Notes: generated from the sequence alone by a model not told the origin. 7,099 nt of DNA from a virus (IMGVR_UViG_2541047432_000025), one strand, 5' to 3'; counted from the first letter of the stretch, positions 28 through 6,953 are shown. Made by a program: numbers and translations.

Positions 28-582
28 TCAAAAAGCAATAACTTTTTTCTCTATACCAAAAGCCATAACCATTGGTTTGTACAAAATAAATTCTGCCACC
101 TTTAGCCAATGCTCAATGCGTCTTTCACAGGTTCTTAAACTCCATTCCGGATGTGCATCATTCAGCAATTCAGCCATTTTGCGCTTAGTCATCCCCCGCC
201 CCACATAACGCTGACTCAGAACATTGAGCAGCCCGGGATAACCTGCCAGTACTTCACCAATAACCCTGTCGATTATTAACGCCTCTGAATCGGTACAATG
301 CACCAGCCAGCTTTTTTGCTTGCCGTTGATCATATCCCGCAAAAAAGCCTCAAGTTTAGGTTTGTCCAGACCTGCTTTTTTCATCCTCCGGAGCGCCTCG
401 TTAATTGCCGTTTTTGTCAGCTTTTTAGAGGTCAGCAACTGGTTGAACATATTTCCCGTCTTACCGCCGCCAATATACGACCAGCGCCCCCACATACGTA
501 GTTTCCCCTGAATCCAGACACTTTCCAGCGTGGTGAGACGAAGGTGCTCTCCGCTTTTTCCTGTGTTCGTTGGGTAAATCAT
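28..582 (-). CDS. Putative phage late-gene antiterminator Q-like protein, 184 aa from ATG at 582 (the ORF track extends the frame to a non-ATG start at 702)
   Basis: Long minus-strand ORF. The ATG at 582..580 overlaps the stop of the upstream YbcO-like gene (ATGA) and has AAGGA about 9 nt upstream. It is the last gene of a nin-like chain, where lambdoid phages place Q. W-G-x-W and downstream conserved-looking blocks resemble my recollection of 82/933W-type Q proteins, but this is not verified. Confidence 0.55.
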   Translation of the reverse strand: MIYPTNTGKSGEHLRLTTLESVWIQGKLRMWGRWSYIGGGKTGNMFNQLLTSKKLTKTAINEALRRMKKAGLDKPKLEAFLRDMINGKQKSWLVHCTDSEALIIDRVIGEVLAGYPGLLNVLSQRYVGRGMTKRKMAELLNDAHPEWSLRTCERRIEHWLKVAEFILYKPMVMAFGIEKKVIAF

Positions 583-869
583 AAATAACCGTCCTTTCTC
601 CAGATCTCTTGTGTGCGAAAAACACCTTCTGCATGCATCAGGCGCAATTCTTCTTTGGTGTAATCGCTGGTTTTTACTCTCCCGTCGATTAAATCGTGGC
701 ATGAGTTACAGGCAATCGCTGCCTGCATATCGTGTGGCTTTATCGCTGTTCCGCACGTTCCCGCCAGCCTGTAATGCGCCAGCACAGAGGTTTCGGGATT
801 GTGATTGCAGTAGCCAGGGATTCTGATCTGGCATATCTGGCCTTTAGCCGCTTTACGTAAATTCACCAT
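579..869 (-). CDS. ybcO: YbcO-like DUF1364 prophage protein (96 aa)
   Basis: 96-aa ORF with LRKAAKGQ-C-IRIPG-CN-NPETSVLAH near the N-terminus and IACNSCHD further on, matching the remembered E. coli DLP12 YbcO pattern. ATG at 869..867 overlaps the upstream stop (TAATG); GGAG lies about 8 nt upstream. Confidence 0.7.
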   Translation of the reverse strand: MVNLRKAAKGQICQIRIPGYCNHNPETSVLAHYRLAGTCGTAIKPHDMQAAIACNSCHDLIDGRVKTSDYTKEELRLMHAEGVFRTQEIWRKDGYL

Positions 870-1468
870 TACGCAAACTCCAGTAGTTGTGCGGCCACAT
901 TTTCAACTTCCTCCTGAGAGGAGAATTTACGGAACAGAATCCAGTTCCACAGCACATTCAGTACAGATTTATAAACCTGCTGAAACTCGACTTCGTCCAT
1001 ATTCGCAAAAGCGATGGATTTTGCCCGACGCCCACGGCTACCGTCCGGATAAATATGCTCGGTGTAAAATCCGGCCTGAATGGTTACCCACTCGCGGAAA
1101 GCCTCAAACGACTTTAGCAACGCCGTATCCCGGGTTCTACGAGTCGCAACGGTGTTAAGGTATTGCTCTGCGGCATCACTCAGGGCTGGCGTGTGTTCCC
1201 GACCAACTGATTCGCACAGGTAATCAACGAAACCAGACAGCAGTTCTCGTTCGCGAGGCGTGATCGCCCCACCGACCGGAGTCCAGTAATCGAATCCCAG
1301 TTGCAGGAGTTTGAAAAAACGCTTGTGGAATGCGTAGTTACGCACACGCTTAAAATCTGCGTGTATCCACTCACCTATTTTGATTTGATGCAGAAAATCG
1401 CAACTCTCCGGCGTCGCCGGGAGAAGTAAACCAGAAGAAGTTTGTTTGACCAGTTGTATATGCGCCAT
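869..1468 (-). CDS. Conserved lambdoid nin-region protein, DUF1367-like (199 aa)
   Basis: 199-aa ORF with ATG at 1468..1466 and phage-like GC. It sits immediately upstream of, and is translationally coupled to, the YbcO-like gene. The family name is from memory of the usual DUF1367/DUF1364 adjacency. Confidence 0.55.
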   Translation of the reverse strand: MAHIQLVKQTSSGLLLPATPESCDFLHQIKIGEWIHADFKRVRNYAFHKRFFKLLQLGFDYWTPVGGAITPRERELLSGFVDYLCESVGREHTPALSDAAEQYLNTVATRRTRDTALLKSFEAFREWVTIQAGFYTEHIYPDGSRGRRAKSIAFANMDEVEFQQVYKSVLNVLWNWILFRKFSSQEEVENVAAQLLEFA

Positions 1469-1887
1469 TTCTCAATCTCTCGATGGCGCAGTGCAGCAGA
1501 TGCCAGTTGTTCAAGCTAGCACGCAAATTGTAAACCAGAATGCCAGGAAAAAACAAAACCCGCCGAAGCTGGTTGTGTGCGGTTGCGTTGAAGTCTCCTA
1601 GCCAAAGAGTAGCGGTGACCACTCCCCGCCGATAATCTTAGTTGTTTAATTTCGTAAGCTAACTAGGCTAAAAGCTCTCTGTTGTCTGCCTGTTGTACAA
1701 TTAACAAAATGAACAACGAACTAGATATACCAACGCCAGAATGGTGCAACAAATCCCAAACAACACAGCAATGCAACAATAACATATGTTATTTTCCTCT
1801 CACGGGATTCAGTCCTGAATTCTCATAAAGCTAATCTTTTTTTAAAAACATACTGTTAGATCACATGCACTTTCTTTCTTAACATCG

Positions 1888-1915
1888 TTGACTTCGCATG
1901 CGAAGCGTTTAAAAT
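1888..1915 (+). promoter_or_regulatory. Sigma70-type promoter for the GHKL-ATPase operon, with a palindromic candidate operator in the spacer
   Basis: -35 TTGACT (1888-1893), 16-nt spacer, -10 TAAAAT (1910-1915). The spacer holds the perfect 14-bp palindrome CTTCGCATGCGAAG (1892-1905). An A/T tract lies upstream near 1830-1850. The ATG at 1968 is preceded by a weak GAGAG Shine-Dalgarno. Confidence 0.5.
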
Positions 1916-1967
1916 CAACAATTTGCACTTAAGGTATTTATTTTCCCAAACACATAGAGAGTAAATT

Positions 1968-3359
1968 ATGACTGAGAACACGACTCCAACAGCAGACTTT
2001 AGTCCTAGTAAAAGATTTTTTGTAAGTATGCTAACTCGAGATATCGACTTAAACGATGCCATACTTGATCTGCTTGATAACTGCGTCGATGGGGCTTTAC
2101 GTACAATAAAAGACACAAAAAAAACTTCAAAACCATATGAAGGATTTTATGCGAAACTTACGATTAATAAAGATGTCTTTATTATAGAAGACAATTGCGG
2201 AGGTATCCCTAAAAGCTTCCGAGAATATGCTTTTAAAATGGGACGACCCCATCAAAAAGAAGAAGAAAATGAAGGCACCGTTGGCGTCTATGGTATTGGT
2301 ATGAAAAGAGCCATTTTTAAAATGGGTAGAGATTGCTCAATACAATCGAATAATCCCGATGGCGCATTCACTGTAGATATAACACCTGATTGGATCGATG
2401 GTGATGGTTGGAAAATACCGATGCACGAGAGTGACTATGATAACAAAAATCCAACAGGCACAACTATAGAGATAAAAAAACTCCATTCTAATGTGGCACA
2501 AAAATTTAATGAGAGCACATATCTTACTGATCTCTTTTTACAGATAAAACACTCATTGTCATTTATTATTCAAAAAGGATTTAAAATAGAATTAAATGGA
2601 GTTGTTGTTGAACATAATCCGATTAACATCATAACTGATCATTCTAAAATAGAACCATACATATATAAAGCTAAAATAGACGATGTTGATATCGATTTAG
2701 TTGTTGGCTTCTATAAAAATTTAGAAGATGACAATGATGATGTTTTAGAAAAAAGGAGTTCTGATGATGCTGGATGGACTGTCATTTGCAATGACCGCGT
2801 TGTTCTATATTGTGATAAGACACATCTCACAGGTTGGGGCTTTGCTAATGTACCAAGGTTTCATACCCAATTTATAGCAATTTCTGGGGTTGTTCGCTTT
2901 ACCAGTAAAAACCCAGAAAAATTACCAATAACAACAACGAAACGAGGTGTCGATCTTAGTTCTACATTGTACAATGATGTACGAAATAAAATGATTGAAG
3001 GGATGATGCATTTTATTCGATTCACCAATCAGTGGAAAGGTGAGCATCTTGAAGAAGGGAAAAAATTACTTAAGTCAGCTCAGTCACATGAAGCTCAATC
3101 TTTATTTGAAATTACCCCACAATCAACTCCAGAAGATAAAAAAAATAACTGGTCCAACCCTAATAGAAACAAAAATGAGTGGCGATATACACCTAAGCTG
3201 CCTACCCCAGTAAAAAAAAGCTCTACTGTACGAATAATCTTCACCAGAGAGAAAGAAGATGTTAAAATTTTATCTAAATATTTCTTTGGACATGAAGATG
3301 CTAGCGCTTCTGATGTGGGGATGCAATGCTTTGATACGGTGATTGAAGAGGTGAAGTGA
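1968..3359 (+). CDS. GHKL (Bergerat-fold, MutL/MORC-like) ATPase domain protein, 463 aa
   Basis: N-box DLLDNCVDGA (D34-x3-N38-x2-D41, nt about 2067-2096), G1 box IEDNCGGIP (nt 2190-2207), G2 box GVYGIGMKRA (nt 2283-2300) and a GTTIEI motif about 50 aa later, in canonical GHKL order. The C-terminal 260 aa or so has no motif I recognise. Stop TGA at 3357-3359 overlaps the next start. Confidence 0.85.
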   Translation: MTENTTPTADFSPSKRFFVSMLTRDIDLNDAILDLLDNCVDGALRTIKDTKKTSKPYEGFYAKLTINKDVFIIEDNCGGIPKSFREYAFKMGRPHQKEEENEGTVGVYGIGMKRAIFKMGRDCSIQSNNPDGAFTVDITPDWIDGDGWKIPMHESDYDNKNPTGTTIEIKKLHSNVAQKFNESTYLTDLFLQIKHSLSFIIQKGFKIELNGVVVEHNPINIITDHSKIEPYIYKAKIDDVDIDLVVGFYKNLEDDNDDVLEKRSSDDAGWTVICNDRVVLYCDKTHLTGWGFANVPRFHTQFIAISGVVRFTSKNPEKLPITTTKRGVDLSSTLYNDVRNKMIEGMMHFIRFTNQWKGEHLEEGKKLLKSAQSHEAQSLFEITPQSTPEDKKNNWSNPNRNKNEWRYTPKLPTPVKKSSTVRIIFTREKEDVKILSKYFFGHEDASASDVGMQCFDTVIEEVK

Positions 3360-4348
3360 TGTCTGGACAATACATTCCCTATCACTTAAGGCATAATAAG
3401 TCTATTGATAGAGAGATTTTTCTCGAAAGCCTAAACCTCTTAAGCAAAAGACTAAATATTCAAGAATATACATATATAGGTTTTGGTGGTCCGATGCTTG
3501 AAGATTTTAGAATCATGCATAATCGTATCGCTCTTTCTGATATGATTTCTCTCGAAGAACAAGAGTCTACTCACATCAGACAAAAATATAATTTGCCTTA
3601 TAATTGTATTGATTGTAAGCTAATATCAGCTCATGACTTTATTCTTGATTATAGTTTTTCTAAACCATCAATAACATGGTTAGACTATGCCTCCCCGAAA
3701 AAAATACAAACGGATCTAGATGATATACACTTACTAAGTACTAAAGTAAGCTCTTTTGATATTTTGAAGGTCACCTTCCCCATAAATCCTAGTTCTTATT
3801 ACCAACGTAGAGTTGGAGAAAGTTTAGATATTTTTAAAGAAGCTTTTATTAATTCATTAAAATCATTGCTTGGGAAAAAGTATCTTGATTTTAATCTTCA
3901 GATATCAAATGCAGATCTTTCAGATCGTAAGATTAAAGCTCTTTTAATACGAATTATTACAAACGCTTTTAGATCAGCAATAGAACGTGGTCTTTCAGGA
4001 CGTAAGGATAAGATTCAGTATTACCCATTATCCTTAAATCAATATAATGATGGCAGTCATACCATGTTGACAATATCAGGTTTTTTCTCCTCAGAACAAG
4101 AATATATAGAGTTATCTAAGGCATGCGACCTTTCTAACTGGCAATTTTATTCAACAAATTGGGAAGACGTGCAAGAAATAGCAATACCAACACTAACAAT
4201 TAAAGAAAAGATAAATTTAGATAGTAAACTGCCTGATAAAGAAGCATATCAGGCAGCCGCTGAAGAGTTCTCTTTAAACGAAAATGAACGGGATAACTAT
4301 TATAAATACTATAGGTTATACCCTAACTTCCAAAGAATTATGGTTTAA
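3359..4348 (+). CDS. Hypothetical protein, translationally coupled partner of the GHKL ATPase (329 aa from ATG 3359; ORF track lists GTG at 3356)
   Basis: ATG at 3359 overlaps the upstream TGA (TGATG), with GAGGTG Shine-Dalgarno at 3347-3352. Uninterrupted 330-codon frame, K/I/L/S-rich as expected for an AT-rich gene. No catalytic motif identified by eye. Confidence 0.8.
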   Translation: MSGQYIPYHLRHNKSIDREIFLESLNLLSKRLNIQEYTYIGFGGPMLEDFRIMHNRIALSDMISLEEQESTHIRQKYNLPYNCIDCKLISAHDFILDYSFSKPSITWLDYASPKKIQTDLDDIHLLSTKVSSFDILKVTFPINPSSYYQRRVGESLDIFKEAFINSLKSLLGKKYLDFNLQISNADLSDRKIKALLIRIITNAFRSAIERGLSGRKDKIQYYPLSLNQYNDGSHTMLTISGFFSSEQEYIELSKACDLSNWQFYSTNWEDVQEIAIPTLTIKEKINLDSKLPDKEAYQAAAEEFSLNENERDNYYKYYRLYPNFQRIMV

Positions 4349-5467
4349 ATATTCGGGCTGTACTCTTTTATTTAATAAATTGTACAGCCCCTTTAATATA
4401 TATTCAGCAACTATTGGTGACACGCTATTTCCTATTTGTCTGAAACTATGCCATTTAGTTACATGAAAGCGAAACCAATCAGGGAAGCCTTGTAATCTAG
4501 CAGCTTCTCTTGGTGTAATCACTCTTGGATGATAAGGGTGGATCGGCCTGACGGCTTGAAAGCTTCCTTTATCTCTAGCGGTTCCCGCCCTTAAAGTCGG
4601 GCAAAAACCATTTGGATCTAATCTTGTAGATCTTGAAATTTTATCAGTTTCCCCAAAAGATAAGGAAGCATAACGCTCTTGGACGATTTTGCTATGTAAT
4701 GTTCCGGTACATCCAGATATGATATTATTTTTTAACTTAGCGATCGATTCTGTATCACCAACATTCCGAGGGATCTGCCCCCATAATTTTTCATAAAATC
4801 CCCCTTTTCGATCTTTTTTAATTGTTCGCCAACTCTCAGAGTCTGATTGCCAATTGGCATCGATAATATCTGGTAATCCATACAAAGCATCTTTTACAGT
4901 AACCGGATCAATCATTTTAGGCATAAATACTTCATCTGAAATATCAAGCTTCAATGATTTTTTTACACCGATAAAAAAATATCTAGTTCGAATAGTTGGA
5001 GCACCATAATCAGATGCTTTTACCTTGATGGGATCAAGAATATCATAATCACCGCTAACCAAATTAAATGCTTTATTTCTAATGCCAGAATATTTCTCTT
5101 GCATAATACCTGGAACATTTTCTGCCAAAAAGAATAATGGCTGTAATTCTGATACTAAACGGTAGAAATGCATGTAAAGCTGATTCCTGCTATCATCAGG
5201 ATTCCCCTTGCCTATTGAACTAAATCCTTGGCACGGAGGACCGCCAATAATACCATCTATGGGCATATCGTTTTTAAAAAAACCCTTAATTATTTCTGCA
5301 TTTAGTAAAGAAACATCTTCTTGGACGTGCAAACTTCTTGGAAAATTAATTGCGTGAGTATTAATAGCATGTTGATCAATTTCAACTGCCATTTTAACAT
5401 CAAATCCAGCACGTGCAGCACCAAGACTTAGACCTCCAACGCCAGAAAACAAATCTATTACATTCAT
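4316..5467 (-). CDS. DNA cytosine-5 methyltransferase, Dcm-family (383 aa)
   Basis: Canonical m5C-MTase motifs in order: I DLFSGVGG (FxGxGG), IV GGPPCQGFS with catalytic Cys79 (nt 5233..5231), VI FLAENVPG (ENV), VIII-like APTIRTRYFFIG, IX ITPREAARLQGFPDWFRF, X GNSVSP. A variable target-recognition region of about 150 aa lies between VIII and IX. The 3' end overlaps the partner gene by 33 bp. Confidence 0.9.
   Translation of the reverse strand: MNVIDLFSGVGGLSLGAARAGFDVKMAVEIDQHAINTHAINFPRSLHVQEDVSLLNAEIIKGFFKNDMPIDGIIGGPPCQGFSSIGKGNPDDSRNQLYMHFYRLVSELQPLFFLAENVPGIMQEKYSGIRNKAFNLVSGDYDILDPIKVKASDYGAPTIRTRYFFIGVKKSLKLDISDEVFMPKMIDPVTVKDALYGLPDIIDANWQSDSESWRTIKKDRKGGFYEKLWGQIPRNVGDTESIAKLKNNIISGCTGTLHSKIVQERYASLSFGETDKISRSTRLDPNGFCPTLRAGTARDKGSFQAVRPIHPYHPRVITPREAARLQGFPDWFRFHVTKWHSFRQIGNSVSPIVAEYILKGLYNLLNKRVQPEYLNHNSLEVRV
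4355..4390 (+). terminator. Possible stem-loop terminator for the ATPase-partner operon, embedded in the 3' coding end of the convergent methyltransferase
   Basis: GGGCTGTAC (4355-4363) pairs with GTACAGCCC (4382-4390) as a 9-bp stem around an AT-rich 18-nt loop, 7 nt after the partner stop codon. The downstream run CTTTAATATATATT is only moderately T-rich. Confidence 0.25.
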
Positions 5468-5499
5468 ATAGTTGCAACGTCTCTTATTAGTTTCTATGT

Positions 5500-5529
5500 A
5501 TTATAACACAACTGTTCTTGATGTTTTAA
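5500..5529 (-). promoter_or_regulatory. Putative extended -10 promoter for the methyltransferase
   Basis: On the minus strand TGTTATAAT (plus coordinates 5508..5500) is an extended -10 with a consensus TATAAT; a weak -35 (TAAAAC/TTAAAA) lies 17-18 nt upstream. It sits about 33 nt upstream of the MTase ATG at 5467. The 8-bp palindrome GTTGCAAC (5471-5478) is in the leader. Confidence 0.4.
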
Positions 5530-5729
5530 CCCCATAAGATAACCTCATAAAGGCTATCCCTTGAAAATACCGGATCGCATAAATTTAATCTTTCAAAACT
5601 ACTTGTCTATTAATCGAGCAATTTAAGGTTGTTTTAGTCATGTCGATACCGACATAGTTAACTAAACCCATTTCATCGTCCAACAAATGGGGGTAATACA
5701 CTTTGATTTATAGTCGGGTGGGTTTTTCT

Positions 5730-5765
5730 CTATCTGCCTTTGGTGTTCATGCCCAAGGCAGATAG
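5730..5765. repeat. Imperfect inverted repeat (stem-loop) in the spacer between cargo and phage genes
   Basis: CTATCTGCCTTTGG (5730-5743) and CCAAGGCAGATAG (5753-5765) form a stem of about 12-13 bp with one bulge around a 9-nt loop. There is no U-tract on either strand, so it is not a classical intrinsic terminator. Confidence 0.3.
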
Positions 5766-5898
5766 CCTCAAGCACCCGCAGCAATTCTACTTAACTCTCC
5801 TTTTCCCGCAAACCGTTTTTATCTCCAGCGACAAATCGAATACACAACCAGCACCACCGCCATTACTGTTCCTACATTTGCGAATGCTTCAGGCCAGG

Positions 5899-6294
5899 TC
5901 ATTGATTCACCTTCTGCTCAATATTTTTAAGGTCATTTTCCGCATACAGTATTGCAGTTCTTGCTGCCCGCAACCGTGCTTTGGTGTTCTTTTCTTCACG
6001 CTCGAGGCTGGCAACAGATTCTCGGAGCTGATCGTGTCTGTTATGAAGCTGTCTAATCTCTCTCACCACAGCCTCACCATCGTTCGCACACCGCAGAACA
6101 TACTGAAAAGGGTCCACAACACATCCGCACTGCAAGCACAGGATAACGTGATCCTGTTCATGAACCTCAATGGCCCGATGCTTACAGCTCTGTTGTGTGT
6201 AGTTTTTTCTGCCAGTTACTGTAATGTTCAGCAGCTTCTCTTCATCGCGCTTTGGCTGCACCAGTGTGATGATATTATCGCCTTCATTTTCCAT
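5899..6294 (-). CDS. Hypothetical phage protein with a Cys/His cluster (possible zinc ribbon) and charged C-terminal helix, 131 aa from ATG 6294 (ORF track lists GTG at 6369)
   Basis: ATG at 6294..6292 overlaps the upstream stop (TGATG) and has a strong AGGAGG Shine-Dalgarno 7 nt upstream. Contains C-x-H...C-x-x-C-x-C (SCKHRAIEVHEQDHVILCLQCGCV) and a C-terminal region rich in R/E/K/L. Confidence 0.7.
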   Translation of the reverse strand: MENEGDNIITLVQPKRDEEKLLNITVTGRKNYTQQSCKHRAIEVHEQDHVILCLQCGCVVDPFQYVLRCANDGEAVVREIRQLHNRHDQLRESVASLEREEKNTKARLRAARTAILYAENDLKNIEQKVNQ

Positions 6295-6953
6295 CAGTTC
6301 ACCTCCTGCGGCGGTTCTGGTAGCGGCATCCAGTGTGACGGTTTCCACGACGCACCAGGAATTATCCACCCATCATTAGCGTCAGGATGCCCCGGGATGT
6401 AAGTCGCCCACTTCATTCGCCAGTCACCTTTCCTGTCAAACTCCACGGCAACAAGAACGGCTGTTTTGGTATCCGGCATTCGCTCACTACAACTTATCCA
6501 ACCATCCGGAGTTACCGGAGAGTTGCCAGACAGCGCATTCTGCAACCGTTCCAGCTTAACGTATTCCTGAACCCTGTTTCCGTCGCACGCCTGAAGCCAT
6601 TGCTCAGCCTTTTGCGCATCAGTGTGAAAGGCACAAGTGCGACCGTCATCAAATTGCATTTCGTAGAGGTTAGCAATCTGTTCAAACTGCGTGTGTGGCA
6701 ACTTGTAAGTTTGGCTTACGAGTTCGGCTTCCAGTTCTGCTATGCGCTTCTCTGATGCTTCAAGTAACGCCTGCTTATCGCGTAGCGCTTCTTCCAGTTC
6801 AGCAACATGGCATTCACTATCAATAAGGTTGTTCTCTGCTGCTCCCAGCTCAACTCTCAGCTTCCCAACCGTAAGCGCAATCTCCTCGTTCTCCTGGTCG
6901 CGGCGTTTGATGTATTGCTGGTTTCTTTCCCGTTCATCCAGCAGTTCCAGCAC
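6294..6953 (-). CDS. Phage protein with coiled-coil-like N-terminal half and C-terminal DUF551-like domain (219 aa, GTG start)
   Basis: C-terminal segment WISCSERMPD...VLVAVEF...WIIPG...SHWMPLPEPP matches the remembered DUF551 pattern; the N-terminal half is heptad-like and E/L/A/K-rich. The only start near the frame opening is GTG at 6953, with AGAGG about 14 nt upstream; an in-frame stop lies at 7011-7013. Confidence 0.7.
   Translation of the reverse strand: MLELLDERERNQQYIKRRDQENEEIALTVGKLRVELGAAENNLIDSECHVAELEEALRDKQALLEASEKRIAELEAELVSQTYKLPHTQFEQIANLYEMQFDDGRTCAFHTDAQKAEQWLQACDGNRVQEYVKLERLQNALSGNSPVTPDGWISCSERMPDTKTAVLVAVEFDRKGDWRMKWATYIPGHPDANDGWIIPGASWKPSHWMPLPEPPQEVN

Follow-up and report, generated by a model that had tools for sequence, protein, structure and literature searches.

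The 7,099-nucleotide stretch of viral DNA IMGVR_UViG_2541047432_000025 (called the window below, meaning the whole of that stretch) carries a 3.5-kb cassette of three intact genes, spanning positions 1968-5467, which encode a MORC-family GHKL ATPase, a partner protein with the fold of a class I S-adenosylmethionine (SAM)-dependent methyltransferase, and a C5 cytosine DNA methyltransferase. We consider it somewhat probable that this cassette is a restriction-modification (R-M)-like immune or addiction module carried as a prophage moron, in which the methylase would mark self DNA and an ATP- and SAM-dependent complex of the MORC protein and its partner would act on unmarked DNA, probably without cutting it. 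The proposed discrimination between self and nonself draws on gene context: the module looks R-M-like because its methylase often comes with a repair helper, because it is tightly linked to co-translated, co-evolving enzymes, and because it is mobile and resides in defense hotspots. Alongside immunity, the module would probably have an addictive role. The cassette and its immediate signals are as follows.

About 1600 to 5800, no strand: low-GC foreign island in the nin region of a lambdoid prophage, from the composition profile (guanine-plus-cytosine [GC] content 0.30-0.40; flanks 0.45-0.52)
1888 to 1915, plus strand: promoter-like TTGACT-16-TAAAAT, from a consensus scan (10/12 matches), 53 bp 5′ of the ATPase start
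1968 to 3359, plus strand: MORC-family GHKL ATPase, 463 amino acids (aa), with Bergerat and S5 domains and a helical C-terminal region
3359 to 4348, plus strand: partner, PF20553 (Methyltransf_35), 329 aa from its ATG, class I SAM-methyltransferase fold
4316 to 5467, minus strand: C5 cytosine DNA methyltransferase, 383 aa, matched by Pfam DNA_methylase, PADLOC MTase_II and PDB 3G7U
5500 to 5529, minus strand: promoter-like TTAAAA-18-TATAAT with an extended -10 TG, from the consensus scan (10/12 matches plus TG), 33 bp 5′ of the methylase start

Open reading frame (ORF) calls in the window confirm the three-gene layout and the coordinates that an initial annotation of this DNA had given, and the difference in GC content bears out its description of the cassette as compositionally foreign. 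The ATPase and partner genes are, as had been claimed, coupled by a TGATG junction in which the stop codon (TGA, 3357-3359) and the start codon (ATG, 3359-3361) have one base in common; the ATG at 3359 is the partner start in RefSeq and in all homologues, the mechanically called ORF beginning at a GTG at 3356. The methylase gene converges on this pair with the 33-bp 3′ overlap that had been described, the partner ending at 4348 and the methylase stop at 4316. The assertion that the cassette has its own promoters stands only in part. A promoter-like site is present at each end, and the TATAAT of the one on the minus strand (5529-5500) is a perfect match to the -10 consensus, but the cassette region holds 19 promoter-like matches where 17.3 are expected from shuffled sequence. 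Because such matches are no commoner than in shuffles, the sites are not distinguishable from chance, and separate promoters are only plausible.

We surveyed 177 loci drawn from species genomes, metagenomes and viral contigs, scoring their ORFs with profiles of the window proteins; removal of near-duplicates left 120 nonredundant loci from many phyla. The ATPase gene is followed by a partner gene on the same strand in 171 of the 177. The six unpaired loci comprise one at a contig end (L028), one with a truncated partner (L044), one solitary ATPase (L104) and three with a longer sister ATPase (L172, L173 and L175). By mechanical calls, the ATPase stop and the partner start overlap by 4 or 1 bases in 67 of the 120 nonredundant loci, and most of the others overlap by more or lie within a few bases of each other. 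Of the 79 nonredundant loci with 1.3 kb or more of flanking sequence on each side, 74 have a C5 methylase gene within 1.5 kb. A methylase gene lies upstream in the same direction in 51 loci; in 40 it is downstream and convergent, and such convergent overlaps are typically 16-50 bp long. The arrangement recurs in more than 170 loci of many phyla, far beyond what chance would produce. Two of the unpaired loci have features of their own: the solitary ATPase gene (L104:4983-6449) is convergent with a gene for a UvrD-like helicase in housekeeping surroundings, and the truncated partner (L044:6359-6466) is reduced to an N-terminal remnant.

The pair also appears to evolve as a unit. Sequence identities of ATPase and partner are correlated across loci (Spearman 0.66), those of either protein with the methylase less so (0.33-0.38); when the ATPase and partner were divided into regions, every region co-varied alike, and no interface was singled out. 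In some lineages the ATPases are ~70% identical while the methylases are only 35-39% identical, which suggests that methylases are occasionally exchanged. Nonetheless, the target-recognition domains of the methylases (residues 170-312) fall, among 95 systems, into a main cluster of 69 with a median identity of 40%, a related cluster of 22, an unrelated cluster of 3 and a singleton. The methylases are therefore mostly of one lineage with homologous target-recognition domains, which fits a dedicated partner enzyme of conserved specificity. All three proteins keep their catalytic residues unchanged, or nearly so, across the 95 systems, whose overall identity is only 27-40%; the residues that the initial annotation had singled out (N38 and D75 in the ATPase and C79 in the methylase) are all present and do not vary among these diverse homologues. 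To judge from their genes, then, the ATPase and partner are co-translated and co-inherited, with the catalytic residues of both intact.

Genes for the repair of deaminated 5-methylcytosine (5mC) accompany the module. Vsr is encoded within 1.5 kb of it in 33 of 106 loci, and in four loci an HhH-GPD glycosylase gene stands in Vsr's place (L053:773-1498, L060:2879-3844, L071:178-954 and L088:1157-1912), Vsr being undetected in all four. This suggests that the glycosylase is a Mig-like T:G mismatch enzyme with a role in repairing 5mC deamination like that of Vsr. That such repair genes travel with the module implies that the methylase is active in vivo. Clustering of the 1,451 other flanking ORFs yielded no further recurrent gene, the largest cluster (nine loci) consisting of P2 phage genes. 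A gene for an HNH_2 endonuclease of 270-330 aa adjoins the trio in 3 of 56 sampled loci (L020:2543-3361, L029:6613-7458 and L071:4474-5466), and this could be an optional nuclease arm in some versions of the system. The conserved core consists of methylase, MORC protein and partner; the deamination-repair genes are optional, and a nuclease is absent.

The ATPase comprises a Bergerat ATP-binding domain (residues ~1-200), an S5 transducer and a helical C-terminal region (333-463), and its Pfam match is to HATPase_c_3, above the family cut-off. The Bergerat motifs (N38, D75-x-G78-G79, G106/G109/G111 and G164-T165) are invariant or nearly so in sets of 30 and 95 homologues. The transducer has the S5 fold with its conserved basic residue (K325) and satisfies the MORC S5 pattern GhXhhpXXRhl with G269-W-T-V-I-C-N-D-R277-V-V, in which G269, C274, N275 and R277 are invariant among the 95 homologues. 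The best structural matches of the model are MORC3, SMCHD1 and MORC2, over 266-302 residues. This is a true MORC-family GHKL+S5 protein, and the initial annotation's reservation that it might prove to be a fragment of housekeeping MutL, HtpG or GyrB can be set aside. A MutL identity was rejected on the further ground that the MutL C-terminal domain is missing, the structure being nearer to MORC than to MutL. The family is a large one: clustering at 90% identity gives at least 5,430 clusters, and its members are ~45% identical across phyla. The general base of motif I, canonically the Glu that precedes the Asn by four residues (ExxxN), is an Asp (D34) in 95 of 95 homologues, as it is in a longer paralogue described below. 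An Asp at this position may still allow ATP hydrolysis, and it might signify a slow, switch-like turnover of ATP. ATP-dependent dimerization and DNA clamping would be expected of a MORC-family ATPase; the structural model is that of a monomer.

The partner, which the initial annotation had called unknown, instead belongs to a recognized family: it matches PF20553 (Methyltransf_35) with E = 2e-89 and 300.4 bits (gathering cut-off 27) over model positions 1-308 of 309. The class I SAM-methyltransferase fold and its cofactor-binding motifs are present, together with a variable helical insert (~143-218) and a helical C-terminal subdomain. The description of PF20553 as a "putative O-methyltransferase" should be treated as a label only, since fold comparison yielded no support for O-methylation by the partner. 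PF20553 partners form 2,214 clusters at 50% identity; in a search for fusions that might hint at function, the best 150 of them proved to consist entirely of unfused proteins of ~320-345 aa. The fold of the partner places two SAM enzymes in the system, and this changes its likely mechanism.

The third protein is a standard C5 methylase with all catalytic motifs kept, and it is predicted to be active. It matches PF00145 (DNA_methylase) with E = 2.6e-61 and PADLOC MTase_II with E = 2e-98, and its PC(79)Q, ENV, RE and GN motifs are invariant in 95 homologues. Among PADLOC models it also scores against DruM and DrmMII. Residues 1-367 are 100% identical to PDB entry 3G7U, deposited only as a "cytosine-specific methyltransferase"; a structure is thus on deposit for one third of the module, with neither function nor target motif attached. 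The match to other PDB relatives is confined to the catalytic core.

The places in which the module is found are those of defense cargo on several kinds of mobile element: the P2 gpQ-gpA hotspot, the accessory region of Pf inoviruses and, in the window, a moron position in the lambdoid nin region. Many viral contigs have the module in the interval from the portal gene to replication gene A of a P2-like prophage, as in L124, where the portal gene (3447-4568), the trio (4968-8534) and the gene for gpA (9167-11383) follow one another; the gpQ-gpA interval was defined as a P2 anti-phage hotspot by Rousset et al. (PMC9122126). In Pseudomonas phage PfAC20 (L178; PP058144), a 13.6-kb filamentous Pf prophage of P. 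aeruginosa, the trio constitutes ORF1-3 (280-3711). A PADLOC-based study logged that copy as an incomplete system consisting of the cytosine methyltransferase only (PMC11878078). ORF9 of the same phage (5438-6082) encodes an additional short "DNA cytosine methyltransferase." Chromosomal copies are often beside Type I, EcoRII, Type IIG or HNH genes, integrases and recombinases. At two loci (L024:8645-9826 and L035:5941-7116) a full EcoRII-type system (EcoRII-N/EcoRII-C endonuclease, second C5 methylase and Vsr) adjoins the trio, forming a small R-M island.

How might such a module work? We suggest that the C5 methyltransferase would mark a fixed short motif on resident DNA, and that the ATPase and partner would join in a single complex, dependent on ATP and SAM, which scans DNA and acts where the 5mC mark is missing. 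Since the conserved core holds no nuclease fold or gene, action on unmarked DNA would most likely be non-nucleolytic. The most economical guess, and it is a guess, is that ATP-driven DNA clamping of the MORC type would be combined with SAM-dependent transfer by the partner onto nucleic acid, so as to block replication or expression; alternatively, the complex could recruit a host nuclease. The orientation of the genes in the window, where the pair is oriented against the phage early genes and the methylase in the same direction as they are, fits an effector pair expressed in the lysogen and a methylase expressed also during lytic growth. A bolder proposal, which we regard as rather unlikely though worth stating, is restriction without a nuclease: a bacterial MORC protein would clamp DNA that lacks the cognate 5mC, and the partner would covalently modify nucleic acid, either by a base methylation that blocks replication or by an RNA methylation that aborts infection. 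If this were true, foreign DNA would be silenced or poisoned rather than cut, and the module would be a prokaryotic forerunner of the link that eukaryotes show between MORC proteins, cytosine methylation and the silencing of invading DNA.

Beside the single C5 methylase that accompanies the ATPase-partner pair, six loci encode a second MORC paralogue of greater length (570-605 aa); five of the paralogue genes are at L011:7067-8830 (minus strand), L013:8246-9964 (plus), L015:7105-8922 (plus), L073:8675-10336 (plus) and L094:8764-10620 (plus). The paralogue has the same GHKL+S5 core, followed by a linker and a different helical C-terminal domain. In L172, L173 and L175 it occurs with a methylase and without a PF20553 partner, L173 also encoding Vsr. 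Two MORC paralogues sharing one methylase would be expected if MORC effector modules that read the methyl mark were interchangeable. Fusions of HEPN domains to paraMORCs in R-M contexts have been predicted (PMC3710099); a HEPN reading of the paralogue's C-terminus was weak and was not adopted, DUF4145 being matched in one of five proteins (E = 5.6e-4) and the arginine of the Rx4-6H motif missing.

Several observations count against an R-M-like module of this kind. Flanking-ORF clustering revealed no conserved nuclease gene near the module, and neither Pfam nor structure comparison revealed a recognizable nuclease or DNA-damaging activity in the ATPase or partner. The nearest structural neighbors of the partner, with weak scores, are N- and C-methyltransferases of RNA and small molecules. 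If the partner read the methylase's motif, its variable insert (143-218) might vary with the methylase recognition domain; once ATPase identity is controlled, the partial rho is 0.02, so there is no sign of matched sequence specificity. Finally, in an apparently cyanobacterial clade (L002/L003 6001-8438, L008, L009, L010, L033, L039 and L057) the pair lacks a linked methylase and is surrounded by housekeeping genes; a Scytonema example is flanked by genes for NADH dehydrogenase subunits. The ATPases of this clade are 52-82% identical to one another and ~45% identical to the rest. The clade indicates that the pair need not be lethal when a methylase is not adjacent, although an unlinked one could serve.

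Other explanations were weighed. The module might simply serve the DNA modification needs of a mobile element, as an anti-restriction or epigenetic device with no restriction arm, both methyltransferases modifying the DNA of the element or its host and the MORC protein acting as a loader or processivity factor. In its favor, SAM-methyltransferase folds with intact cofactor motifs occur in two of the three proteins, no nuclease is present, orphan methylases are frequent in phages (with PADLOC, the Pf copy was interpreted as an orphan or incomplete R-M system; PMC11878078), and the cyanobacterial pair persists with no linked methylase. We nevertheless think this unlikely. An ATPase-partner operon antisense to the phage early operon is ill suited to modifying replicating phage DNA, and most copies are chromosomal or metagenomic rather than visibly phage-borne. 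The module occupies hotspots that hold defense cargo, antagonistic R-M gene pairs typically have the convergent, overlapping layout seen here, and a MORC-type clamp ATPase is not known as an accessory of bacterial methylases. Selfish addiction with little or no anti-phage role, in which loss of the methylase would let a longer-lived MORC-partner complex poison the cell and so stabilize the prophage or island (post-segregational killing), draws on the same context evidence for R-M-like logic, on the many kinds of mobile element that carry the module and on the clonal, intact state of the copy in 176 STEC-type (Shiga-toxigenic E. coli) chromosomes, 173 of them at ≥99% identity. Addiction is compatible with defense, however, classical R-M systems doing both, and placement in the P2 gpQ-gpA and Pf accessory hotspots favors anti-phage cargo; as the sole function, addiction seems to us quite improbable.

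The frequent presence of repair genes raises one more possibility, namely that the MORC/MutL-like ATPase and its partner assist Vsr or the HhH-GPD glycosylase on T:G mismatches that arise by 5mC deamination. E. coli MutL stimulates Vsr in very-short-patch repair, and this is the parallel on which such a role would be modeled. We give the idea very little credence: about two thirds of the loci, the window included, lack both Vsr and the glycosylase; the cyanobacterial pair persists with no linked methylase at all; mismatch repair offers no obvious task for a SAM-methyltransferase partner; and the ATPase is structurally nearer to MORC than to MutL, whose C-terminal domain it lacks. We return to the R-M-like immune or addiction module as our preferred reading of the cassette.

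The setting of the window copy deserves a fuller description. The window belongs to a lambdoid prophage that has integrated at ttcA in Shiga-toxigenic E. coli (STEC); over bases 1600-5700 it matches E. coli O157:H7 PA20, and many other STEC chromosomes, with 100% identity. Among 5,426 complete E. coli genomes, 176 carry the cassette, each as a single chromosomal copy, and these carriers include O157:H7 and O111 outbreak lineages. In PA20, nin-region genes (DUF1133, DUF1364 and DUF1367) lie on one side of it, and replication, recET, xis and int genes on the other. RefSeq labels the trio "ATP-binding protein," "O-methyltransferase" and "DNA cytosine methyltransferase." Outside the cassette the window contains the following.

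28 to 1468, minus strand: ordinary lambdoid prophage ORFs (DUF1133, DUF1364 and DUF1367), ~50% GC
5899 to 6953, minus strand: prophage ORFs for small hypothetical proteins (from flank annotation), ~50% GC

The flanking phage genes are all on the minus strand, so that the methylase shares the direction of the phage early operon and the ATPase-partner operon opposes it. Between the ORF at 5899-6369 (minus strand) and the promoter-like site of the methylase, a 14-nucleotide inverted repeat (93% complementary, with an 8-nucleotide loop) occupies positions 5730-5765; no clear run of T follows it on the minus strand, and it is a candidate terminator or operator. The window contains no Rfam families or notable repeats. 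GenBank phage records contain no DNA match, and their sole match at the protein level is Pf phage PfAC20.

The module is common, yet current defense finders report an orphan methylase only. If it is an immune system, many loci now read as incomplete R-M would be real barriers to the entry of phages and plasmids, with relevance to phage therapy and to the transformation of STEC and Pseudomonas. With a core free of nucleases, its mechanism could reveal a new way of disabling foreign DNA. The module would also offer the first functional handle on bacterial MORC ATPases, which have been proposed as the ancestors of the eukaryotic silencing MORCs.

How does the module compare with known systems? 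The initial annotation could assign the trio to no named system, and we concur: across PADLOC, NCBIfam and Pfam, the ATPase and partner obtain only HATPase_c_3 and PF20553. PADLOC-DB v2 has zero families for either protein, and the sole trace in NCBIfam is MzaB (E = 0.037; 12 bits against a cut-off of 850). The two proteins thus lack the signatures of the named anti-phage systems in these collections, among them Mza, Tiamat, Druantia, DISARM, BREX and the PDC/HEC candidates. Full-text literature searching found no paper that characterizes or names the trio, which also goes unmentioned in the main text of Rousset 2022 and in that of a 2026 paper on P2/P4. A classical Type II R-M system was considered and rejected; the methylase motifs are intact, but Pfam, PADLOC and NCBIfam reveal no PD-(D/E)xK, HNH, PLD or GIY-YIG nuclease, and the structural models are fully explained by MORC and methyltransferase folds. 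The earlier observation that nuclease, helicase and AAA+ proteins are absent likewise holds by Pfam, PADLOC, NCBIfam and structure comparison.

The idea of MORC proteins in restriction is not new. As the initial annotation noted, GHKL/MORC-like ATPases had been predicted in R-M neighborhoods by comparative genomics; the prediction goes back to Iyer, Abhiman and Aravind in 2008 (PMC2292703), who placed MORC/paraMORC ATPases among R-M components, with C5 methylases and Vsr. Their systems share with the present one a GHKL+S5 protein bearing the MORC S5 motif, linkage to a C5 methylase and Vsr, and patchy lateral spread; however, they are mostly linked to helicases or nucleases, and a partner of the PF20553 type was not described, whereas the core here has neither helicase nor nuclease. 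The literature searched contained no experimental tests of those predicted systems. Similar in outline is a module that Bellieny-Rabelo et al. (2021) described computationally (PMC8011034). There a C5 methylase is encoded upstream, the GHKL protein (HATPase_c_3) is accompanied by a small partner that is Rossmann-like, Vsr is frequent and HNH_2 occasional. In that HEF_HK/Response_reg_2 module the partner is a receiver-like domain, while ours has a SAM-methyltransferase fold, and its families PF19191 and PF19192 are absent here (Pfam scan of the ATPase and partner, E ≤ 0.1). The MORC R-M idea is thus a prior prediction, and the combination of a MORC protein, a PF20553 partner and a dedicated methylase lineage is unnamed in the literature we found; the module would be categorically new only if the non-nucleolytic mechanism is true.

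Type III R-M, BREX, DISARM and Druantia each join a self-marking DNA methylase to an NTPase-driven effector complex, a likeness that for our module is inferred from its genes. The signatures of those systems (helicase, PglZ, PLD and DUF1998) are missing here, the ATPase is of the GHKL/MORC type rather than superfamily 2 or AAA+, and the module measures only 3.5 kb. The eukaryotic proteins MORC2, MORC3 and SMCHD1 resemble the ATPase as its top structural matches, in the S5 signature motif and in their tie to cytosine methylation. The bacterial protein differs from them in having no CW, coiled-coil or hinge domain, in the Asp that replaces Glu in motif I and in its dedicated methyltransferase-fold subunit. 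Shedu type I-D/paraMORC3 (GHKL fused to a DUF4263 nuclease, as in VcSduA; PMC12137116) is similar in that its GHKL ATPase is believed to control an effector during phage defense. Our module has no DUF4263 or PD-(D/E)xK domain; its effector would be a separate protein with a methyltransferase fold, and a methylase is linked to it.

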